A stretch of 64,000 bases of DNA from a virus, in IMG/VR virus record IMGVR_UViG_3300030202_002193, positions 20,539 through 84,538 of that record; one strand, given 5' to 3'. The notes beneath the pieces are model-generated. The model had not been told where the DNA came from. It did no database searches and saw only the letters and a program-made list of their open reading frames with translations. The translations under genes and the position numbers were made by a program. This document shows positions 20,410 through 56,267 of the stretch, in pieces (the first letter of the stretch is position 1; every line of letters begins with the position of its first letter).

Positions 20410-22164
20410 TTATTCACCTTTCATTAACTCCTTTCCTTTGTTAGTTAATCGTATAACTTCTCTTTTTAATTTAAGAACTTCTTTTACCTCTTCTTGTATA
20501 TCCATCAAATCCTTCTCTGTTAAAGATTTTTTATTTAATTCCATAACTACCTCTAGATTTAGGTCCGAATCTTCTTCTAAATATAGCGGAGAGTCTAACA
20601 AGCCAATAAAATAATTAGCAGTATTTTCTAAGAGTTTTTCATTTTTTCTTAAATATTCTTTCATCTGAACCATTTCTAGACCAATTTTTCTTCCTATTGA
20701 TATTAACATCCTTTCATATTTAGTTAGCGCAGTTATATATTCTCCATAAAACGGTACGGGTTTTCCATCAACCATTATATTTCCTTTCACATCGTTAGGG
20801 TTGAATGTCTTAACTAATTCCTTCATTGTCTTTTTAATAGGTCTAGGCAAAGTTATCTCATGCTTCAATCTAATTATTTTTTGATTTAATTCTTTTATGT
20901 TATTTATTTGGCCGCTATGTTCGTCCATCAGACCGCTTTCTATTTTACTTCTAATGCTAGTAGAATCCGCTTTTTCTAGAATGGCTAATTTTTCTTTTAA
21001 CTTGTCTCCTTGTATAGTTATAATCTGTAGTACTCTATTAGCCTCTTTAATGTCGGGTTCTAATTCTTTTTTACCTTCTACATATTCTGTTGCGGATAGT
21101 TGGCCAAGAGAATCTTCCTTTTCTTTTAATGATTTTAACTTAGTTTTGGTAGAATTAAACCTCTCCTTCATCTCTTCCAGTTGTGATTTTATTTCTGAAA
21201 TTTCCCCTTCAATTTTATTTTGGTAATTTACCATTTCTGCTTCTATATCAATAGCCGCATGTTTTTCCAACTGCTTATTCAGTTCTTTTTTCCTTTCAGT
21301 TAGTAGGCGTATTTCCCCTTCAACACCACTAAAAGCACTATCTAAACTATCTTTAGAAATAATAGGCCCTTCTACTTTAATATGTGCCATTGGATTTTCC
21401 TCTTTTTTAGGCATAGTAATTTTTCTAAGAAGTTGAGACTTTATATTTTTAATATATGCGGCAATGTCTCCGGATTGCTTGATGTGGAAGGTAGGGTATT
21501 CTCCAAAGGACTCTACAAACAGTTCTATTAGAACATCGTATAAAGTGGTCATAATTGGATAAGGTTTCTCTTCTAAACCAATTAGGGACTCACCAAAAAT
21601 TTCATCCATGTACTTTGTTATATTTTCAATGTCTGATTCATCTATAGTTATTATGATAATCTTAGTGCGTTCTTCAGATTCTTCATATTTTATATCCGGA
21701 GGTGGAGAGAAATATTCCTGTATTCCATGTAATACTTTTGCGCTTTGTATATTTTCCATGCTTTCTTCTATAGTAAAGATAGAAGAATGTAGAGTAGATT
21801 TAACTTCTTCTTCAAACAATGCAGTTTTAAGCCTAGACTGAACATCTTTAGGATTTATCTTTGTGTCTTCTGCGTCTTTTATATCGTCAAGGATGTAGTC
21901 TACTTCTTTCAATTTTCTAAAAGAATACAGTATTCTTTCTAATTTCAGTTTTGGAGTACCGGCCCCTCTAATCGAAGAACCTAATTTATTTAATCTAGTA
22001 GCCCTAGCCTCAAAAGTTTTATCTTTTTTCATAGACTCTAAAACTTTTAGTGCAGAAACATAAGTTCGATAGTTTGAGTTTTGGGACTTAATATATTCTT
22101 CTCTTCTTTTTTCTGACTGGGTTTGGCCTGTTACAGAATACTTATCTTGTTTCAAAACGGCCAC
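20410..22164 (-). CDS. long coiled-coil hypothetical protein
   Basis: 584 aa, GTG start with GGTGA RBS. Confidence 0.7.
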   Translation of the reverse strand: MAVLKQDKYSVTGQTQSEKRREEYIKSQNSNYRTYVSALKVLESMKKDKTFEARATRLNKLGSSIRGAGTPKLKLERILYSFRKLKEVDYILDDIKDAEDTKINPKDVQSRLKTALFEEEVKSTLHSSIFTIEESMENIQSAKVLHGIQEYFSPPPDIKYEESEERTKIIIITIDESDIENITKYMDEIFGESLIGLEEKPYPIMTTLYDVLIELFVESFGEYPTFHIKQSGDIAAYIKNIKSQLLRKITMPKKEENPMAHIKVEGPIISKDSLDSAFSGVEGEIRLLTERKKELNKQLEKHAAIDIEAEMVNYQNKIEGEISEIKSQLEEMKERFNSTKTKLKSLKEKEDSLGQLSATEYVEGKKELEPDIKEANRVLQIITIQGDKLKEKLAILEKADSTSIRSKIESGLMDEHSGQINNIKELNQKIIRLKHEITLPRPIKKTMKELVKTFNPNDVKGNIMVDGKPVPFYGEYITALTKYERMLISIGRKIGLEMVQMKEYLRKNEKLLENTANYFIGLLDSPLYLEEDSDLNLEVVMELNKKSLTEKDLMDIQEEVKEVLKLKREVIRLTNKGKELMKGE

Positions 22165-45594: not shown

Positions 45595-45857
45595 CCGAAT
45601 GTAGAAGAATGACTAAAGTAACAAAGGGAGATAGAATGCTTCTAGATTCTTTAGAAAGAAGTTATTTAGATACTAGCGAACCCTTTATGGCATCAGAAGC
45701 AATACAGGCTATCTTAGTAACCGGAACTAAAAAGGGTAGGAGTTTTACAATAAAAATTAATACTAAGAAATTGTGCGGTATTTTCAGAAAATCAGACAAC
45801 TACGAGTTGGTAAGAAAAACCAGTGCAGGTAGGATATTTTGGAGGAGAATCGTATGA
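45591..45857 (+). CDS. winged-HTH-like protein, paralog of 53803-54063
   Basis: EAI...N....R.S..Y...WRR pattern shared. Confidence 0.55.
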   Translation: MTECRRMTKVTKGDRMLLDSLERSYLDTSEPFMASEAIQAILVTGTKKGRSFTIKINTKKLCGIFRKSDNYELVRKTSAGRIFWRRIV

Positions 45858-46066
45858 AATATAACGAATCAGATATCGGAGAGATTGTCGAATATAGTGA
45901 TGATAAAGGCTCTTACTTTGAAGAAAGAATAGTCTTAGTTTATTGTCAAGTTTGTGGGGCTAGATATATCGGGCCTATCAGAGAAGCCGGAGGTTTCTTA
46001 GGGGGCCACGAAGTATTCCACACATGGGAATTCAAAATAGAAATGAACGATGAATTGGAGGTATGA
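45854..46066 (+). CDS. small Zn-binding protein
   Basis: CQVC...HEVFH. Confidence 0.6.
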   Translation: MKYNESDIGEIVEYSDDKGSYFEERIVLVYCQVCGARYIGPIREAGGFLGGHEVFHTWEFKIEMNDELEV

Positions 46067-46822: not shown

Positions 46823-47171
46823 AGAATGGGAAGTTTGTATGAGAAGAAATGGCTCAATTATGATGAAGGTAAATGTAGACCCTGTAATCATGGATAGAGA
46901 TACTTGCATATCAGTTTTATACGATAGCGTTTCTTGGAAAGAGAATGAAGTAATTAAAACAATGAAGAAAAAGGGATTGAAAGACATCTTGAAACAACAG
47001 GCTAGATATCTAGCATATTATGGATATATAGAACATGCACCTCCCAACAGAAAAGAATTAATTGAAGAAAATGAGCGATATAAAGATACTTGGTCATTAG
47101 AGAAATGGGATATGGTTGCTAGAGTTTTCGACAGGCACTTCCCCGATTTCAGATTTTTAGCAGGTGAATAA
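46803..47171 (+). CDS. hypothetical protein
   Basis: GAGGAGG RBS. Confidence 0.65.
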   Translation: MNMSKGKEWEVCMRRNGSIMMKVNVDPVIMDRDTCISVLYDSVSWKENEVIKTMKKKGLKDILKQQARYLAYYGYIEHAPPNRKELIEENERYKDTWSLEKWDMVARVFDRHFPDFRFLAGE

Positions 47172-47796
47172 GATGAATATATTTGCATTATCAAAATGCC
47201 CTGTAGAAGCGGCTCAACAAATGATAGACAAGCACATAGTCAAAATGCCAACTGAAAGTTGTCAAATGTTACACACTAATTCGCTCTATTTTTTGTTTTG
47301 GAATTGTCATGGTAGGGAACCTTCTCTAAAAGAATTGAAGGAGTTTCACAAGGAATCACATTTTTCCTATATGATGAAACCTGCAATGCTTAACCACCCT
47401 AGCACAATTTGGGCTAGACAAAACAAAGCAAATTACATGTGGCTATACAATCATGCACTTGCACTTTGCAAGGAATACACTTTCAGATATGGTAAGATTC
47501 ATGGTACGGAAAAAAGAGTCTTGGATAGTTTTACCTTTTCTTATGAAGACGAAGACTTAACTCCAGTGACTATTGCTATGGCTGACCAATACAGAATCCC
47601 TCAAGAAAAACATACTTGGGAATTTGTAATTAAAAGTTATCAGCAGTATTATTTAGAAGGCAAATGGAAATTCGCTTCTTGGAAAAAGAACCGAACTCCT
47701 ACTTGGTGGCCCAAAGACCAACACAAGAAAATGAAGAACAAAGAAATATTGCGCTTCAATAAATTATGGAATGCTAGTTTGGAGATGATTAAATGA
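47164..47796 (+). CDS. pyrimidine-dimer DNA glycosylase (endonuclease V)-family protein
   Basis: MNIF.L...P..AA...DKHIVKMPTESCQML, NHPSTIWAR, LCKEYTFRYGKIH. Confidence 0.75.
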   Translation: MNKMNIFALSKCPVEAAQQMIDKHIVKMPTESCQMLHTNSLYFLFWNCHGREPSLKELKEFHKESHFSYMMKPAMLNHPSTIWARQNKANYMWLYNHALALCKEYTFRYGKIHGTEKRVLDSFTFSYEDEDLTPVTIAMADQYRIPQEKHTWEFVIKSYQQYYLEGKWKFASWKKNRTPTWWPKDQHKKMKNKEILRFNKLWNASLEMIK

Positions 47797-48846: not shown

Positions 48847-49992
48847 ATGACAGATGAATTATTGATTAAGCCTAAGAGAAAATTAGGCACTGGAAGATAT
48901 GATAGGAAGTTAATAGAGAGGATGATTGATTTATCCGTAGCAGACAATTATGAAGATGCGGCTAAAGAATGGATTGCAACCGGTAATGTATATTGGGGAG
49001 ATATTGATGTGCCTAGTTGGTGGGAAGATAGGAGAGGCAGTTGTCTTTGTGGGCATAGCATCGTATATCATTTCGAAGTAGAGAATACAGAAAATGGTGA
49101 AATGATTTTAGTTGGTTCTGACCACATTAATTCTTATCACATTCTAAAGCAAATTGCACTTTCTACAGGAATGCAAGAATCTATGATTACAGATGAAATG
49201 ATAGATGAATGGATGAAGGTAAGAGTCGCTTCTATGATGCAAACTGCTTGGTGGCATAATAACGGTGAAATGTTCACAAGAATGTTTGACGCAGTTAAAG
49301 AATATGATATTAGGGTAAATGTAAGAGTTCTGAAGTGGCAATACAACGGAGAATATATGAGGAATATGCCTGTTACTGCAATACGCAAAGCGGGGAAAGG
49401 TTCTCCATCGGATTCGGACTACAAGATGGCTTCTATCGTTTGGAGATGGAACCATCCTGATAATCCTAAAGCCCAAGTAAATACTAGAGGCTACCCTACC
49501 GATAAACTTTGGACCGATTTAATTATGTTCTATTCTAGAATACAGGAATATATTCAGCAATGTGAAGATGAGGATATGAGGAATGCCCATCTTCTAAAAA
49601 CTGCGGAAAGGCGCAGAATGCTAAATAGCGTTTCCCTAAACTTAATTGAAGAAGATAGGAGGGCAATGGAACAGGCCATATTTGAAGATAGTTGCGACTA
49701 TTTCGGCATTGTTGGATTCCACGATTTCGATATAGAAAATAGCGAAATAGATGATTGGTCTAAGAGGTTTCTAAGGGACACAAAGCAACGGATTATTTCA
49801 GGCTATGACCTATCCACTAGACAGTTAATGAAGTTAGAAGAAATTCTAAGAGATGATACTCCCCCAACCCCTAAGCAAATTAGATATTTACTTAGGTTAG
49901 GTTATGATGGAGAAGTAGAAGGGTTGAGCAGACAAAGGGTTAGCAAATTAATAGATGATTTGATAGCAAAAGGCACAGGACTCGAATACTAA
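48847..49992 (+). CDS. Zn-binding hypothetical protein
   Basis: CLCGH...VGSDH; C-terminal PTPKQIRYL...S.LID module. Confidence 0.7.
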   Translation: MTDELLIKPKRKLGTGRYDRKLIERMIDLSVADNYEDAAKEWIATGNVYWGDIDVPSWWEDRRGSCLCGHSIVYHFEVENTENGEMILVGSDHINSYHILKQIALSTGMQESMITDEMIDEWMKVRVASMMQTAWWHNNGEMFTRMFDAVKEYDIRVNVRVLKWQYNGEYMRNMPVTAIRKAGKGSPSDSDYKMASIVWRWNHPDNPKAQVNTRGYPTDKLWTDLIMFYSRIQEYIQQCEDEDMRNAHLLKTAERRRMLNSVSLNLIEEDRRAMEQAIFEDSCDYFGIVGFHDFDIENSEIDDWSKRFLRDTKQRIISGYDLSTRQLMKLEEILRDDTPPTPKQIRYLLRLGYDGEVEGLSRQRVSKLIDDLIAKGTGLEY

Positions 49993-49996
49993 CGCA

Positions 49997-50013
49997 GGGC
50001 TTTAATAGGTAAT
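49997..50013 (+). promoter_or_regulatory. archaeal TATA-type promoter GGGCTTTAATAGGTAAT heading the Ubl operon
   Basis: 15 of 17 nt match to 43265 motif. Confidence 0.55.
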
Positions 50014-50045
50014 GCAAACTAAATAAAATAGAAGAGGTGAATTGT

Positions 50046-50246
50046 ATGATAAGTTTAACAATTTTGAATGAAACAGGACATACTTCGCTATCCCTTGAGG
50101 CTAGTGAAGTTATAGAGCAGATTAATACCCATCCTACAGATTGGGTATTTATTGATGGAGAAATGGTGACAAGAGAGAACCTTTCTTCAGTCAATTGGGA
50201 CGATGTTGATTCAGTTGTTTTGACTCCGGCAATTGTCGGTGGTTGA
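50046..50246 (+). CDS. ubiquitin-like (beta-grasp) protein ending in Gly-Gly
   Basis: 66 aa, ends VVLTPAIVGG-stop; VFIDGE; GAGGTGA RBS. Confidence 0.8.
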   Translation: MISLTILNETGHTSLSLEASEVIEQINTHPTDWVFIDGEMVTRENLSSVNWDDVDSVVLTPAIVGG

Positions 50247-50295
50247 ACCAACTCAACGGGAAGGGGGAAGCCCCTATTCTATTGGAGGTTTTTCG

Positions 50296-50559
50296 ATGTA
50301 TTTTAGAAATGCAGAAGAATGTAAAAGAGTGATAGAATCTTTTATGGAAGATTTGAGTCCTCTAGATAGAACAAAACTAAATATCGTTTTCTCCAATTTA
50401 GGAGAAAAGACAGACAGGGAAAAACAATGGAGTATGATACAGGCATTTAGAAAGTGTCTTTGGAGTATTCCTGAAGCGGTAGAAAGAGGGTTTACTAATT
50501 GGTTATTAGAAGAACTACCAAACAGAAAGGCCGCACTAGAATATCATGGGGAAATATAA
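50296..50559 (+). CDS. small helical hypothetical protein
   Basis: GGAGG RBS, MYFRNAEE. Confidence 0.6.
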   Translation: MYFRNAEECKRVIESFMEDLSPLDRTKLNIVFSNLGEKTDREKQWSMIQAFRKCLWSIPEAVERGFTNWLLEELPNRKAALEYHGEI

Positions 50560-50727
50560 ATGAAAGAAAAAGACCCCGAATACGAAGAAAGCAGTTGGTC
50601 GTATAAAAATAGGATTGCGACTAAATGTAGAATATGTGGTAGGCAACTTCTCCTACCCGAAGAAATGAAAAAGGAAGTACATGCAGAATGCGATAAAAAT
50701 TTAGATAATAATACATATATGATGTGA
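50560..50727 (+). CDS. 55-aa Zn-finger protein
   Basis: Hand translation ...CRICGRQL...HAEC. Confidence 0.55.
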   Translation: MKEKDPEYEESSWSYKNRIATKCRICGRQLLLPEEMKKEVHAECDKNLDNNTYMM

Positions 50728-50731
50728 TAAG

Positions 50732-51964
50732 ATGAGATTATACATAAACAATGGAAGTACAGATAGACTAACAACTGAAATAACTATAGAAGAAGGAAGA
50801 GATTTCATACCTAATGGACGCATTTATACTGTAAGTCCAAACTGGAATGCCAAGGGAGACCCCTTGCTTTCAGGATTAAGCAGTTTTTGGCAAAAACGCA
50901 TTAGGTGTAGGTATAACTACGAAAGCGTGCTTAAAATAAAAACCTACCCTATTCATATTAAGAAGAATAAGGGCTATTTCATAAACGGAACTAGAATCGG
51001 AATCAAAGGTATGTCTATGGTCTTAGCGAGACTAACCTATGCTTCGTGTTTAGAACAAAGTGATTCTAAGATGACATCTATTTTTATAGATGCTATGAAT
51101 ATACCCGAACAAGTTTCATATGCGTTAGAAAATCGTGCGCCGTATAGTTTTTATGAAAATTATACTTTGCAAGAAGTACGATTGAATGTAGAGCCTATTG
51201 GGAATAAAAAATATGCGATAGAGATATCTGATTCTATTTGGGGTGAAATTTCACAAAGGGATTTAGTAACCTTTGTCAATACTTATCGTGATAACCTGAA
51301 GAGAGGTTCGTGGAGTCAATTAAGCCCTAAGAAATTATATGGGAAACTTATGCAAGCAGAACCATCCGATTCAGAACTGAAAGTAATGAAAGCCTTTCTT
51401 TCCCAAAACAGAACCCAAGATATAGTCGAAAAAAGAGCAAAGGAATTAATTCAAGAAACTTGTGATTTAATGCCTAACAATTTCTTCTATTACAAGATAG
51501 ATGTAGAGGAAAACGGGACTATAGAGAAGGCAGGGCTGAAAATTACTAACCAAGATAACGAATGGTTATTTATTAGAGGTAGAAAATACGATTGGATGAT
51601 TCGTAAGGCGAGTAATCGTGCTAGTAGACAATCAGTAAATACCTTCGTGTATAATCAAGTAACTAAGAGGGAGAAGACAGGACAAATTAAAAATGAAGAA
51701 GGCGTATGGGTAGACACCTACGAAGAAATAACCTCCTTCCAATGGAGAGGGCCTATTTGCGTAGATAATCTAGCATTTAACGGCGCACAATCTATTGGCG
51801 ACCAAATGGTAGCAAGAGCATATGCCTTCCTGAATGATTCTGTTACTATTAATTTAGTAAGTACAATTAATTCCTATCTAAACAAAAAAGACATGTCTGA
51901 AAATAGATTAGACTTTGAAGGAATGATAATGGATGATGTGGAGTCCTTGATATGTCCTGTGTAG
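50732..51964 (+). CDS. hypothetical protein with candidate catalytic Cys (possible E2-like carrier)
   Basis: C-terminal WRGPICVD resembles E2 G-x-I-C-L-D; lies in Ubl/E1/JAB operon; fold unverified. Confidence 0.45.
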   Translation: MRLYINNGSTDRLTTEITIEEGRDFIPNGRIYTVSPNWNAKGDPLLSGLSSFWQKRIRCRYNYESVLKIKTYPIHIKKNKGYFINGTRIGIKGMSMVLARLTYASCLEQSDSKMTSIFIDAMNIPEQVSYALENRAPYSFYENYTLQEVRLNVEPIGNKKYAIEISDSIWGEISQRDLVTFVNTYRDNLKRGSWSQLSPKKLYGKLMQAEPSDSELKVMKAFLSQNRTQDIVEKRAKELIQETCDLMPNNFFYYKIDVEENGTIEKAGLKITNQDNEWLFIRGRKYDWMIRKASNRASRQSVNTFVYNQVTKREKTGQIKNEEGVWVDTYEEITSFQWRGPICVDNLAFNGAQSIGDQMVARAYAFLNDSVTINLVSTINSYLNKKDMSENRLDFEGMIMDDVESLICPV

Positions 51965-52782
51965 AGTGTGGTAGTAGTAATTTTAATTTTGATGAAAGAT
52001 TGGGAGAAAGGATTTGTATTAATTGCGGTTTAGTAGAAATAACCGAGATATTTGAACAAAGCGTTTCCCAATACAATTCAAATGGAGAATTAGTTAGAGA
52101 GTCTACCTTTAGGAATACCTTGGGTACTACTAATAGGAATAGATATGATGTTAGCGAAAGCAACATACAGACGGGCCTAGTTTACTGCAATCTAGTTTTG
52201 TCTTCTATCGCAACAAACCATCCTCTTAGAGATAGGGTAGAAGAATGCTATATTTCCCTCTTTAGAGGGAATGTATTTAGTAACAAATACAGTTATGAAA
52301 ATAGAGCAACGGCCTTGGTATATTATGTTTTGAAGGAAAATGGGATTGCTATTAAGATGAGTGATGTTCGTAAGGAATTTGAATGTGATATGCGCAAGGT
52401 GAATAAATTAACTAGGGTGATTGCAAAACACTTTGGTAATTCCGGTGTATATGCTAGGGACAATATAGTTTCTCTTTTAGATAAGACTTCTAGAGAAGTG
52501 AATGATACTGCGGAATTCATTACATTGTGTCAAGAGATGCACATAGCCGTCAATCCTATTTTAGAAGAAAATGATTTTACTAAAGGGAGGACTTATTGTG
52601 CCGCAATATGTCTAATAGTAGCGAGTGCTAATTTAATGCAAATAAAACAAAGGGACTTGGCTAAACGAGCCGGATTTGATATTTCCACGATTCGTGTTCA
52701 GGCTAAGAAGATTCTAGGTATGTTAGGATATAACAATCTAAAAGAAATTAGTGGAAAAACAATAGGAGATATGATAAAATGA
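51952..52782 (+). CDS. tfb: transcription initiation factor IIB-like protein
   Basis: Zn ribbon CVECG...D...GERICINCGLV, two cyclin-like repeats, C-terminal HTH QRDLAKRAG. Confidence 0.85.
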   Translation: MSCVECGSSNFNFDERLGERICINCGLVEITEIFEQSVSQYNSNGELVRESTFRNTLGTTNRNRYDVSESNIQTGLVYCNLVLSSIATNHPLRDRVEECYISLFRGNVFSNKYSYENRATALVYYVLKENGIAIKMSDVRKEFECDMRKVNKLTRVIAKHFGNSGVYARDNIVSLLDKTSREVNDTAEFITLCQEMHIAVNPILEENDFTKGRTYCAAICLIVASANLMQIKQRDLAKRAGFDISTIRVQAKKILGMLGYNNLKEISGKTIGDMIK

Positions 52783-53333
52783 GAAAAGTATTAATTATAG
52801 GTGCAGGTGGAATTGGGAGTTTTCTAATTCCTCTATTGAAAAAGACGGGACTGTATAACATTACAGTAGCAGACCCCGACATTGTAGAGAATAAAAATCT
52901 ACCCTACCAAAATTACGAAAGGATAGATGTAAATAAAAATAAAGCGAGTGTTATGTATGAGAGATATGGGCTATCGGGTGCGATTCCTCATAAGATTCTA
53001 ACACTTGGTCAAATGAAAGGATTTGATTTAGTTATATCTTGTGTAGATAATCTAAGTTTACGAAGGACATTATATCGTAGCGATTTTACTTGGTTAGATT
53101 TGAGAGCGCAAGGTCGCAATGCGGCTTTTATCTCTTCAGATTCTAGTCCTGAAATGTGGGACACAATGTTGGCTGGACCTGATGGAAGTTTTTCTTGTCA
53201 AGGAGATTCTTGGGATGGAAGTAATAAAAATGTTCACTTTATGCAAGTGGCAATTGCTGGAATGGCGGCTGAATGGATTCAGCGTTGGTTCAACAAAGAA
53301 GATGTTGGGCTTTTTAAGGTGGTAAATGTATGA
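52779..53333 (+). CDS. ThiF/MoeB/E1-family adenylyltransferase
   Basis: IIGAGGIGS, DPDIVENKNL..Q, NKA, SCVDN...RR; Cys in SFSCQ. Confidence 0.88.
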   Translation: MRKVLIIGAGGIGSFLIPLLKKTGLYNITVADPDIVENKNLPYQNYERIDVNKNKASVMYERYGLSGAIPHKILTLGQMKGFDLVISCVDNLSLRRTLYRSDFTWLDLRAQGRNAAFISSDSSPEMWDTMLAGPDGSFSCQGDSWDGSNKNVHFMQVAIAGMAAEWIQRWFNKEDVGLFKVVNV

Positions 53334-53806
53334 CTAAAATAATGGGAGATGAATTAGGCCCCGACTATAAAGTTGGCATAGTTTCTACTTGGGAATTAAA
53401 TCCTGAAATTACAGAAGAGTTCCTATCTGAAATATGGAAGGCTTCTACAGAAATACTTCCAAAATTGGAAGTTCAAGTTGTTATTGATAATAACGACAGG
53501 CTACACATTAGTAGTGGTACTGCTGGCTATGTTGATTTCAAAGTAGACCCAATCGGAATGAAACTTCCTATCAAGTGTTGGATTCATACCCACCCATTCG
53601 GTTCTGCGTATTTTAGCGGAACTGACATTAGAACAGTTTCTATTTGGGAACCTATGATGGAATCTGCAATAGTATTAGGTGGCAATGGCCACTATGGAGT
53701 TTGGGAAAAATTCAAACCAAAGCAATTGATTATCTATCGAGATTATGAATATGAGAGAGTGCAACTTTGGGGATATGGTACTTATGGATATGGTGAAGAA
53801 GAATGA
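53330..53806 (+). CDS. JAB/JAMM (MPN+) metalloprotease
   Basis: E...WIHTHP...FSGTD motif. Confidence 0.88.
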   Translation: MTKIMGDELGPDYKVGIVSTWELNPEITEEFLSEIWKASTEILPKLEVQVVIDNNDRLHISSGTAGYVDFKVDPIGMKLPIKCWIHTHPFGSAYFSGTDIRTVSIWEPMMESAIVLGGNGHYGVWEKFKPKQLIIYRDYEYERVQLWGYGTYGYGEEE

Positions 53807-54063
53807 AATTGAGAAATCGTAGAATATTAGAATACTTATTAGAAGAAGTAGAAATTGGAGATGTAGTCAATTCTCAAGAGGCTATTACTATTCTAATAAA
53901 CAAGAAGGGTAGTGTTCGTAGTGGACGCTCATCTTATGTATATCGAAATATGGCATTTATTCCTAATGTTAGGGGAATGGCACATCTGCTCAGAGTTTCA
54001 GGACACTTTGAAAGGTGCGAAGATAGCCCAAGGAAGAAAACAAATTGGAGGAGAGTATCATGA
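53803..54063 (+). CDS. winged-HTH-like protein
   Basis: Paralog of 45591-45857. Confidence 0.55.
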   Translation: MKLRNRRILEYLLEEVEIGDVVNSQEAITILINKKGSVRSGRSSYVYRNMAFIPNVRGMAHLLRVSGHFERCEDSPRKKTNWRRVS

Positions 54064-54332
54064 AGCAATGGATTATTAGGAAGATAATTGGTTTAATGGG
54101 CAGGGTCTATGTTTTCTTAGATAAGTTTCTGACTCACGATACTAGAGAGGTTTTGGGAGTACCGATTGATGAAGACTTTCAGAAAATGTCTAGAAAGCAA
54201 CTCTGTAGATATATCGAAGTCAAACTAGGTTGGGAAGATAATGACTTTTGGAATTTAGAATCAACGCAGAAGATTAGACTATGTTGCCAAGTAGCAAGAT
54301 TAAATAAATTTAGTTTAGGTGAAGAAGAATGA
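54060..54332 (+). CDS. hypothetical protein
   Basis: GGAGG RBS; ATGA coupling. Confidence 0.6.
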   Translation: MKQWIIRKIIGLMGRVYVFLDKFLTHDTREVLGVPIDEDFQKMSRKQLCRYIEVKLGWEDNDFWNLESTQKIRLCCQVARLNKFSLGEEE

Positions 54333-54559
54333 TTAAAACGATAGGAAGATGGATTGGGTTTTTGCCTCTAACAGAAGAAAGCGCAAGCGGAATAAAAAGT
54401 GAAAGTTTGGATAAAGGTATTGTTCATTGGGGAAGTAAAGGAGACACCAATGGATTAAAGATTGGAGATAAAATACACTTCGATATTAACAAGGTCGCCT
54501 ACAAAAGTAGTGACTATTGGATTATTGATGCGGATTATATTTACGGGGTGATTGAATGA
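54329..54559 (+). CDS. groES: co-chaperonin GroES-like
   Basis: EESASGI mobile-loop motif, LKIGDKI.F, IYGVIE; directly upstream of groEL. Confidence 0.7.
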   Translation: MIKTIGRWIGFLPLTEESASGIKSESLDKGIVHWGSKGDTNGLKIGDKIHFDINKVAYKSSDYWIIDADYIYGVIE

Positions 54560-56064
54560 TTTTATTTGGAGAAGAAGTAAGAGAAAAACTACTACAAGGG
54601 ATTAATCTTGTAGCAGATACAGTAAAGCCGACGCTAGGGCCACAAGCACACAATGTAATCTTGCAAGGTAATCCTCCAATTATTATTAATGACGGAGTTA
54701 CTATTGCTAAGTATGTTTCTCATCCGGACCCATATGTTTCTATGGGAATTAAACTAGTTCAGAACATTGCTTCTAAGGCTCAATCAAATGCAGGTGATGG
54801 AACCACTACTGCCTGTTTAGTTGCGGCGGCTCTTTGTAATGGATTGTCTAAATATAAAATAAATGATATCCATACTGTAAAGTCTAATCTAGAAGAAATT
54901 AGAGATGCGATATTACAAGGCATTGTCGAACAAACTAAAGAAATTAGTGACGAATATATTTTGCATATTGCCACAATTGCATCTAATAACGATGCCACAA
55001 TGGGTAAATTAATTTCAGAAGTAATAGATGTTGTTGGCCGTGATGGAATTATTACGGTGAACGAAGGCAATCAACTAGAAACTACCTTCGAAGTTACAGA
55101 TGGATTAGAAATAGATGAAGGGTATTTTAGTCATTTAATGGCGAATGACCCATCAGGTATTTGTGAATTGAAGAACCCTTTGGTTTTAGCAACTAACAAA
55201 CACCTAATTAATTTTGCAGATATTCTTCCAGCACTAGAACTTGCTTCTAATAAAGGTAGGCCAATTCTTATTTTTGCAAAAGCAATTCAAGGTTCTGCTC
55301 TTAACAATACGGTAATGAATATCGTAGACGGAAGAATACAGGCTTGTATTGTAAAAGCACCGAACTTCGGAGATGCCCAACTAGATGAGTTAGGAGATAT
55401 TGTTGCCTTGATGGGTGGTAAGTTATTCAGTGATGAAAACAATGACGATATCGCTACTGTAAAGTTTGAAGATTTTGGCTCTTGTGAAAGAGTAACTATT
55501 ACTTCAGAATCCACAGTACTAATTGGAGGTAAAGAGAACATAGACGATAGGGTATCTTCTCTTAAATTAAGATACGAAGAAGCAACTTCTAACTATGATA
55601 AACTAAGATTACAAAAGAGGATGAGTAGGCTTCAGGGAGGAGTGGCGGTAATTTCTGTTGGTGCGGCTTCTAGTATAGAAATGAGAGAAACTAAAGAAAG
55701 GTTAGATGACGCTATTAATGCCACCAAAGCCGCTTTATCCGGTGGGATTATTGTAGGCGGAGGAATCGGACTCGCTAATGCTACTACTGTTTTAGATGGA
55801 AAGATACACCCTCAATTAGAAATGATTGTTACGGACGCATTAATGCACCCGTTACTTACCCTTGCAGAAGGAAAGGACTTAGACGCTATTGAGTTAGGAT
55901 TAACTAACACACACGGTTTTAATGCTTTAACTAGAGAGAAGATGTGCTTGTCTAATGCAGGGGTTATTGACCCTGCTAAAGTTACTATCAGCAGTTTCAC
56001 TGTTGCTATGTCTATTGCAATCTTATTCTTAACTACAGATGTAGCAGTATTGTTGGAGGAATAG
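54556..56064 (+). CDS. groEL: group I chaperonin GroEL
   Basis: TLGP, NDGVTIA, AGDGTTTA, KAPNFGD, GVAVISVGA, DDAINATKAA, GVIDP. Confidence 0.95.
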   Translation: MILFGEEVREKLLQGINLVADTVKPTLGPQAHNVILQGNPPIIINDGVTIAKYVSHPDPYVSMGIKLVQNIASKAQSNAGDGTTTACLVAAALCNGLSKYKINDIHTVKSNLEEIRDAILQGIVEQTKEISDEYILHIATIASNNDATMGKLISEVIDVVGRDGIITVNEGNQLETTFEVTDGLEIDEGYFSHLMANDPSGICELKNPLVLATNKHLINFADILPALELASNKGRPILIFAKAIQGSALNNTVMNIVDGRIQACIVKAPNFGDAQLDELGDIVALMGGKLFSDENNDDIATVKFEDFGSCERVTITSESTVLIGGKENIDDRVSSLKLRYEEATSNYDKLRLQKRMSRLQGGVAVISVGAASSIEMRETKERLDDAINATKAALSGGIIVGGGIGLANATTVLDGKIHPQLEMIVTDALMHPLLTLAEGKDLDAIELGLTNTHGFNALTREKMCLSNAGVIDPAKVTISSFTVAMSIAILFLTTDVAVLLEE

Positions 56065-56267
56065 TAATGTTCGAAGATAAGAACATTGTAAGAATGACTA
56101 TTGTTTACGAAGATGGTTCTATGACCATTCTAACTAAAAACAAAGACGGTTCTATGGCGGTTAAGAGGAGAGAGAAATGAAACTTTGTCCTAAGTGTGGA
56201 AATGATTGCCTACCCTATTCTTTAAGGAGATGGGGCATGTGCATAGAATGTAAGAAGAGTGAAGTCG

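Follow-up and report, generated by a model that had tools for sequence, protein, structure and literature searches.

Gene content and conservation of the Ubl block

We analyzed a 64,000-nucleotide (nt) stretch of viral DNA (positions 20,539 to 84,538 of IMG/VR record IMGVR_UViG_3300030202_002193), referred to here as the window, and in particular a block of seven open reading frames (ORFs) within positions 50046-53806 of the window. The block encodes a ubiquitin-like protein (Ubl), a small protein, a zinc protein, a 410-amino-acid (aa) protein termed p410, the transcription factor TFB, an E1, and a JAMM protease. A first-pass annotation had described these genes as a ubiquitin-like conjugation operon wrapped around TFIIB, and each of the ORFs that it listed was found where it had been placed. 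The features of the block, all on the plus strand, are as follows.

49998-50009, +, promoter-like element GGCTTTAATAGG (TATA/BRE-like), a conserved box approximately 40 nt 5' of the Ubl ATG
50034-50039, +, Shine-Dalgarno-like GAGGTG, 7 nt ahead of the Ubl start
50046-50246, +, Ubl, 66-aa beta-grasp protein with the end AIVGG-stop (fold and motif)
50296-50559 from ATG (87 aa), or from TTG 50233 (108 aa), +, small protein (ORF and synteny)
50560-50727, +, C2HC zinc-binding protein, 55 aa (invariant ligands)
50732-51964, +, p410, with an N-terminal part of unassigned fold and a predicted C-terminal UBC-like domain (AlphaFold2 model)
51407-51925, +, candidate E2-like (UBC/RWD-like) domain, p410 residues ~226-398 (fold matches)
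51758-51760, +, codon of Cys343 (GPICVDN), candidate thioester cysteine (invariance)
51952-52782, +, TFB, Zn ribbon and two cyclin folds (Pfam and profile)
52779-53333, +, minimal E1, a ThiF-family adenylyltransferase, 184 aa (Pfam ThiF and motifs)
53330-53806, +, JAMM/MPN+ metalloprotease (JAB), 158 aa (catalytic motif)
53803-56064, +, continuation of the coupled chain, three small genes and a GroEL-type chaperonin at 54556-56064 (overlapping stops and starts)

The genes were tightly packed, as the first-pass annotation had noted. From the zinc protein gene to the JAB gene the junctions abutted or overlapped throughout, with a single gap of 4 nt between the zinc protein and p410 genes. The small gene and the zinc protein gene were separated by 0 nt, p410 and TFB overlapped by 13 nt, and ATGA overlaps joined TFB to E1, E1 to JAB, and JAB to the next gene. 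The chain passed position 53806 and ran through the three small genes into the chaperonin gene. Small ORFs at 56067-56260, one of them encoding a CxxC...CxxC zinc protein, followed the chaperonin stop with no real intergenic space, so the coupled chain may reach beyond 56 kb.

The operon had also been credited with its own promoter. When the 53-nt intergenic region ahead of the Ubl was aligned with those of 10 diverged relatives, the box read GGCTT(T/A)AATAG in an otherwise variable sequence, and the AGGTG of the Shine-Dalgarno-like site was mostly kept. The 10-mer of the box occurred only once within the window. Because the box is conserved amid diverged intergenic DNA and is unique in the window, it is a reasonable inference that it serves as a dedicated archaeal-type promoter ahead of the Ubl. 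The idea that GCTTWAATAG is a repeated promoter of the whole genome was rejected.

An E1 search of IMG/VR returned 25 related loci with 54-91% identity. Searches of these loci with tblastn and hidden Markov models (HMMs) found the same order in essentially all of them: a 381-aa gene (g381), Ubl, small protein, zinc protein, p410, TFB, E1, 0-2 further genes, JAB, and, farther on, the chaperonin. An order retained across 25 loci is more than chance. The Ubl was present in all 19 of the loci or records that extend far enough upstream. Its apparent loss from three loci (L018, L025, and L028) was an artifact of the flanks used, and in the complete records it was located 6-7 kb 5' of E1; a fourth contig (L027) was too short upstream to include the Ubl position. 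Ubl, E1, JAB, and p410 were therefore linked throughout the relatives, so that the synteny comparison, which the first-pass annotation had named as a way to refute its claim, did not refute it.

The exact Ubl sequence was recorded on 44 contigs, and 20 DNA runs, drawn from 11 studies, contained near-identical copies of the stretch. The Ubl family comprised 875 clusters, which carried no family name. The E1 family, with members of 184-200 aa, comprised 971 clusters, and the contigs that encode it reach ~95 kb. A scan of genome collections for the E1 returned only bacterial metagenome-assembled genome (MAG) contigs with the viral cassette and one unrelated ThiF, and no host source was identified in it. 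Contigs with p410, TFB, E1, JAB, and Ubl were found in MAGs assigned to Maricaulis (L027 and L029) and Altibacter (L028, L031, L034, and L036); these are most likely misbinned viral contigs. In GenBank phages, tblastn with the E1 found only distant ThiF genes at 26-33% identity, in crAss-like, Xanthomonas jumbo, Moraxella, and Bacillus phages. Most of these genes were labeled "thiamine biosynthesis protein" (MH675552.1 [crAss001], PV764602.1, KR093646.1, and others).

The source record is 84,538 bp long and was rated 100% complete by CheckV. Its minus-strand arm carries terminase and other morphogenesis genes, and its plus-strand arm, from ~42 kb, carries genes for an ATP-dependent DNA ligase, the RFC small subunit, AAA ATPases, a pyrimidine-dimer glycosylase, a GroEL-type chaperonin, and TFB. 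Magroviruses, a group of tailed viruses whose hosts are Marine Group II/Poseidoniales archaea, have two divergent gene clusters, a near-complete replication machinery, and GroEL (PMC5434244, PMC10768690), and TFB, GroEL, and GroES are annotated on a map of the Aoguangviridae (PMC10768690). From these likenesses we infer that the virus is a marine, magrovirus-like archaeal tailed virus; the host group of such viruses is probably the Poseidoniales. The assignment was made from gene content (TFB, ATP ligase, RFC, and GroEL) and the literature because searches of GenBank phages gave no close record: the Ubl block had no match as a DNA query, and the terminase search found no archaeal-virus record. 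The cassette is real, and it is strongly conserved within what, on this assignment, is a very large group of viruses of marine archaea.

The Ubl, its JAMM protease, and the E1

The Ubl start was best read at the ATG at 50046, which gives a protein of 66 aa with the C terminus ...TPAIVGG-stop. The AlphaFold2 model, built from a 13-sequence alignment, had a predicted local distance difference test (pLDDT) score of 84.7 and the element order beta-beta-alpha-beta-beta-(short helix)-beta, which is that of a beta-grasp fold, and its C-terminal tail was floppy and of low pLDDT. In a Foldseek search of the Protein Data Bank (PDB), nearly all of the top 50 matches were to ubiquitin, NEDD8, ISG15, SUMO, FAT10, or ThiS, with probabilities of ~0.9 and E values of 0.01-0.05, and BubC was also among the fold matches. 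The AIVGG end was invariant across the aligned relatives. Model and motif together uphold the claim of a Ubl ending in Gly-Gly. By sequence, the protein had no match in Pfam, PHROG, PADLOC, or NCBIfam and no PDB match below an E value of 0.49. It was the best-conserved protein of the block, with a mean column identity of 77% compared to 71% for E1, 48% for TFB, 40% for JAB, and 32% for p410, which fits a protein constrained by several partners.

The C termini of 120 family representatives were compared. Sixteen ended at the Gly-Gly, and the remaining 104 (87%) extended 1-2 residues past it, most commonly with CY (27), NY (17), or Q (11) and otherwise with other one- or two-residue tails. In the clade to which the window belongs the Ubl ends at the Gly-Gly, its tail having been lost. 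The prevalence of tails suggests that the ancestral Ubl was a precursor in need of trimming, for which the JAMM protease of the operon is the obvious candidate.

The assignment of this protease, made originally from the motif HTHP..FSGTD, was borne out, with the full catalytic motif (E47, H86-T-H88, and S96-x-x-D99, with an E-to-H spacing of 39) invariant in 19 sequences. Its profile matched AMSH-LP with an E value of 1.3e-3 over the HxH...S..D block, and its match to Pfam Prok-JAB was 19.4 bits (E value, 1e-3), under the cutoff of 25. The first-pass annotation had reasoned that the Ubl needs no maturation and that JAB would therefore act as a deconjugase. This argument fails outside the window's clade, given the tails of 104 of 120 Ubls, and JAMM is most simply read from the sequences as ancestrally a Ubl maturase and not only a deconjugase. 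The deconjugase role itself may still apply. The catalytic residues are all kept in the window's clade, where the Ubl already ends at Gly-Gly, and a JAMM that remains intact where no trimming is needed argues indirectly for a second role, which may be deconjugation or the release of an adduct.

The third component is the minimal E1. Its Pfam ThiF match was 58.1 bits (E value, 9.6e-16; cutoff, 28.1), and its invariant motifs comprised the GAGGIG Rossmann site (G-x-G-G-I-G), D32/D34, K39-N40, K55, D90-N91, R95, and C140 (GSFSCQG). The adenylation-site motif C88-V-D90-N91...R95 was invariant and aligned with MoeB, Uba4, UBA3, and UBA5 up to residue ~100, and both C88 and C140 were 100% conserved in 120 representatives. 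The E1 profile matched structures of MccB, Uba4, UBA3, UBA5, MoeB, Cap2, and ThiF over residues 1-100, and the PADLOC E1-E2 (Cap2) models matched its Rossmann region at 1e-9. In a MAFFT alignment with one bacterial MoeB, C140 fell on the crossover-loop Cys, and SPEMWD lay opposite the SPCYRC zinc motif with identical spacing. The protein has no CxxC zinc pairs, no N-terminal helices, and no C-terminal Ubl-docking region, its chain stopping shortly past the helix next to C140 on the C-terminal side. The original description of a minimal E1 with GAGGIG, a Cys in SFSCQ, and no paired zinc CxxC was therefore accurate. The E1 scored under every NCBIfam equivalog cutoff, with 25.6 bits against a cutoff of 450 for the UbaA model.

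The best PDB sequence match for the E1 profile was MccB (1.2e-9), and PaaA was also among the matches. These enzymes suggest another function, in which the E1 homologue adenylates the C terminus of a small protein to yield a modified peptide or nucleotide-peptide product instead of a tag. Many of the Ubl tails begin with Asn (NY, NL, NV, and NC), as this explanation might predict. However, the MccB score was barely above those of Uba4, UBA3, and MoeB and covered the Rossmann part only, and the presumed substrate is a folded 66-aa beta-grasp protein with an invariant Gly-Gly and no short peptide. The tails are also highly variable and sometimes lacking, and therefore are not a conserved reactive residue. 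We consider this explanation very improbable.

The 410-aa protein and the proposed conjugation function

The first-pass annotation had put forward p410 as a candidate E2 and had proposed Foldseek and conservation checks of the protein. Its family comprised 68 clusters and, at 50% identity, 157 representatives, none of which is named and all of which share one architecture. Three unnamed viral homologues in BFVD had template modeling (TM) scores of ~0.7. The AlphaFold2 model of p410 had a pLDDT of 83.8. For residues ~226-398 the fold matches were mostly to UBC, RWD, or UEV domains, with this one superfamily dominant instead of a scatter of folds. The elements of the C-terminal domain are a 17-residue helix, a strand meander with a long variable hairpin, C343 (GPICVDN), a loop, and several helices, and in the model this order is the UBC order. 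C343 was the only invariant Cys of p410, present in 100% of 67 homologues, and directly follows the last strand (326-342), ahead of a helix (355-367). The conservation of C343 and the fold matches of the C-terminal domain thus lend some support to the proposal. In Foldseek, the whole model gave PDB matches with TM scores of ~0.1 (for example, capping protein), which were rejected and count against an E2 assignment. Two other leads were set aside. Baseplate-like matches of the C-terminal domain in the ESM Atlas were subthreshold, shared 83 features, and were taken as noise, and for P0478, a marginal remote match of the domain profile, Pfam gave only weak DUF7737. On the basis of the modeled fold and the invariant Cys at a strand-helix junction, and with every sequence test of E2 membership negative, the chances that p410 is an E2-like thioester carrier are about even.

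We interpret the block as a self-contained, virus-encoded cassette for conjugating the Ubl to proteins, with a probability of approximately 0.5. What was observed directly are the parts and their catalytic motifs, the Ubl fold and C-terminal tails, the linkage of the genes, and the lack of sulfur-relay partners. In the mechanism that we propose, transcription of the cassette would start at a promoter of its own, in the early or middle phase of infection, and would include the viral TFB and chaperonin. The Ubl would be made as a precursor with 1-2 residues past the Gly-Gly in most lineages and in already mature form in the window's clade, and JAMM would trim the precursor to expose AIVGG. The ThiF-type E1 would adenylate the C-terminal Gly of the Ubl and then probably form a thioester with it on the invariant Cys140. 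The Ubl would next be handed to Cys343 in the UBC-like C-terminal domain of p410, the N-terminal half of which would select the substrate, and would be joined to host or viral proteins, from which JAMM might also be able to remove it.

Several observations weigh against this interpretation. By sequence, p410 had no E2 match in Pfam (E value of 0.1 or better), PADLOC, NCBIfam, or PDB profiles, and HMMER with the C-terminal domain profile against 1.84 billion representatives found only its own family, always with the ~400-aa architecture. When p410 was compared by hhalign to four Cap2 E2 domains, the probability was 0.4%, and there was no HPN motif among its conserved columns. The placement of C140 of the E1 depends on a single MoeB sequence, the hhalign confidence ends at residue 99, and the E1 lacks the ~45-residue C-terminal region after the last aligned helix of that MoeB. 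The Ubl core has 0-1 Lys in the family, which makes chains unlikely. No RNA run was among the sequencing runs carrying the stretch. Adenylation, both thioesters, the protein targets, and reversibility are deduced.

The negative E2 searches bear on the possibility that conjugation proceeds without an E2, the E1 alone attaching the Ubl as in SAMPylation or urmylation, with JAMM as both maturase and deconjugase and p410 as an adaptor, a target, or an unrelated protein. Set against this are the single 100%-conserved Cys of p410, its conserved synteny with the other parts, and the dominance of one superfamily among its fold matches, as well as an E1 that is far under the UbaA equivalog cutoff and has no UbaA-type zinc motifs. 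An E2-independent route is unlikely in our view, yet a serious rival. Protein conjugation as such, whether or not p410 acts as an E2, is what we regard as quite likely.

The nearest structures to the Ubl by identity were sulfur carriers (ThiS, 24-25%; MoaD related, 22%; CysO, 22%), and the best curated models for the short, ThiF-like E1 were of ThiF types, including short ones of ~200 positions (TIGR02356 and TIGR02354). These two results count against conjugation and suggest instead that the E1-adenylated Ubl is converted to a thiocarboxylate by host sulfur donors, for tRNA or nucleotide thiolation or for a cofactor. JAMM would then only trim the precursor, as QbsD does, or release an adduct, as Mec+ does. 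In the QbsE/QbsD system a JAMM protease removes the C-terminal tail of a sulfur carrier. The scarcity of Lys in the Ubl also fits a sulfur carrier, and a ThiF/MoeB gene has been listed among the auxiliary genes that are prevalent in archaeal viruses (RaFAH; PMC8276007). The first-pass annotation had stated that no biosynthetic partner of a sulfur relay was visible, and this held for the whole viral genome: no rhodanese, MoaE, ThiG, or TtuA/NcsA-type ATP_bind_3 protein (PP-loop thiolase) was found in the complete 84.5-kb genome, in a search in which the control genomes did give matches. Host enzymes could, however, fill the missing steps. A sulfur relay would leave unexplained the conserved Cys protein with a UBC-like fold and a JAMM that is intact where trimming is unneeded, and the gene setting of the cassette is one of transcription, replication, and proteostasis and is not metabolic. 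We judge a sulfur carrier improbable, though likewise a serious rival.

As to what a conjugating cassette might modify, one report describes the Ubl modification and degradation of the basal transcription factor TBP2 in Haloferax (PMC4895103). The first-pass annotation had named TFB as a possible target and had raised a counter to host Ubl-based defense as another conceivable use; both are conjectural. The TFB gene lay between those for p410 and E1 in almost every relative, and its constant position in the operon proves nothing about TFB as a Ubl substrate. The most far-reaching version of our interpretation is that abundant ocean archaeal viruses carry a complete cascade (Ubl precursor, JAMM maturase/deconjugase, minimal E1, and highly diverged E2) that tags host or viral proteins during infection. 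We advance it tentatively, as somewhat doubtful in this full form; its targets may, for example, be the basal transcription machinery with which the viral TFB would compete, or proteasome-bound proteins.

Among known systems, SAMPylation in Haloferax volcanii (SAMP1-3, UbaA, and HvJAMM1) is similar in being archaeal and in combining a beta-grasp Ubl ending in Gly-Gly, an E1 of the MoeB/ThiF type that has a loop Cys (C140 being the candidate in the viral E1), and a JAMM that cleaves Ubl linkages, as is proposed for the viral one. Basal transcription factors are among its known targets (PMC4895103). Unlike the virus cassette, it is cellular and has no E2. UbaA is a full-length enzyme and carries zinc CxxC pairs, whereas the viral E1 has 184 aa, no such pairs, and the low UbaA score given above. 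The viral genes, unlike those for SAMPylation, form one operon with an extra Cys protein. The side-by-side arrangement of Ubl, E1, JAB, and candidate E2 resembles that of Bil, yet Bil, Bub, and type II CBASS Cap2/Cap3 are bacterial antiphage defenses and the cassette sits in a virus of archaea. Compared to these three systems, the viral Ubl, JAB, and p410 have no sequence membership (PADLOC), and its E1 and candidate E2 are encoded by two different genes that flank TFB.

The ubiquitin operons of Caldiarchaeum subterraneum and Asgard archaea share with the cassette an archaeal setting and a set of Ubl, E1, E2-like protein, small zinc protein, and JAMM (PMC3082918, PMC5654768). Their proteins are of the eukaryotic type by sequence, with a RING finger and an Rpn11-like JAMM, whereas the viral ones are similar at the level of fold or motif only, and the viral zinc protein, unlike the small RING finger, has four ligands (C2HC) and no RING cross-brace. 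ThiS-ThiF, MoaD-MoeB, CysO-MoeZ-Mec+, and QbsE-QbsC-QbsD likewise pair a beta-grasp Gly-Gly carrier with a ThiF-family adenylating enzyme, and in the CysO and QbsE systems a JAMM trims the carrier tail or frees an adduct, as the viral JAMM may do. The cassette differs from these relays in that the viral genome has no sulfurtransferase or acceptor enzyme, the E1 scores under all ThiF/MoeB equivalog cutoffs, and a conserved Cys protein with a predicted UBC-like fold is present.

Prokaryotic Ubl conjugation has, to our knowledge, been known so far as a cellular function (SAMPs, Urm1, Bil, Bub, and CBASS). Virus-encoded ubiquitin machinery comes mainly from viruses of eukaryotes. The E1 alone has already been noticed in archaeal viruses: the RaFAH survey placed its MoeB/ThiF-family gene among the most prevalent auxiliary genes and tied it in general terms to ubiquitination (PMC8276007), and a preprint on the Asgard virus Nidhogg reported E1-like genes, on the assumption that these work with Ubl components of the host (bioRxiv 10.1101/2021.07.29.454249). 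Both name an E1 homologue only, and no virus-encoded Ubl with tails, JAMM, or E2-like protein. The searchable magrovirus literature made no mention of ubiquitin, and its main papers made none of ThiF or JAB. In the searchable literature, outside of which most subscription journals lie, we found no account of a viral Ubl with tails, JAMM, a Cys protein, and a fixed operon.

If the cassette does conjugate, it would provide a compact, reconstitutable system (~66, 184, 158, and 410 aa) for the study of minimal E1/E2 chemistry, a view of the means by which viruses of archaea commandeer the transcription or proteostasis of their hosts, and a new data point on the spread of Ubl cascades between viruses and cells. 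The full cascade, if true, would mean virus-borne, eukaryote-like tagging outside eukaryotes and a new E2 lineage. Should the cassette prove to relay sulfur instead, the virus would carry an auxiliary pathway to some as yet unnamed product, a less surprising outcome that is still undescribed.

Other genes of the block and its surroundings

The claim that a TFIIB gene lies within the Ubl block proved correct. TFB is full length, with a Zn ribbon and two cyclin folds. It matched the Pfam TFIIB Zn ribbon at 1.7e-7 (Zn_Ribbon_TF, 31.1 bits against a cutoff of 29), its profile over residues 50-253 matched human TFIIB (1.7e-13) and the Pyrococcus TFB core (9e-13), and C3, C6, C22, and C25 were invariant. 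In the zinc protein, C23, C26, H41, and C44, which make up a single C2HC site, and also P6, Y8, T21, R24, G27, and L30 were invariant in 13 sequences. No family match was found for it, and a role as a Ubl-binding or E3-like finger is speculation. The small protein between the Ubl and the zinc protein was syntenic in relatives with a mean column identity of only 37% and had no family match in Pfam, PADLOC, or NCBIfam.

The chaperonin at 54556-56064 matched Cpn60_TCP1 (2.6e-35) and PHROG groEL (4e-109) and was syntenic in relatives. We treat it and the coupled small genes as the context of the Ubl cassette, with no link to Ubl function implied. A 76-aa gene at 54329-54559, which overlaps the chaperonin start and is syntenic in some relatives, had no Pfam match at an E value of 0.05 or better; its position and size suggest a GroES-like cochaperonin. 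Directly 5' of the putative Ubl promoter, the g381 gene (48847-49992) was syntenic in nearly all relatives at 32-79% identity and had no family match.

In most relatives, a conserved zinc protein of ~70 aa (C-x2-C...G-H-x3-H) was encoded either between the E1 and JAB genes or immediately downstream of JAB (L007, 7204-7440; L012, 7259-7474; L025, 10440-10676; and others). In the window its gene lies 7 kb upstream, at ~45851-46060. It ends in Gly-Gly plus 1-3 residues in a few lineages, and most members do not. Small ORFs with a Gly-Gly end downstream of JAB in L025, L027, and L028 were considered as a second Ubl and rejected, as they belong to this CxxC...H...H zinc family, other members of which have no such end. 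Finally, the gene at 47164-47796 encodes a homologue of pyrimidine-dimer DNA glycosylase (Pfam Pyr_excise, 6e-7), and UV repair is a plausible function for a virus of the surface ocean.

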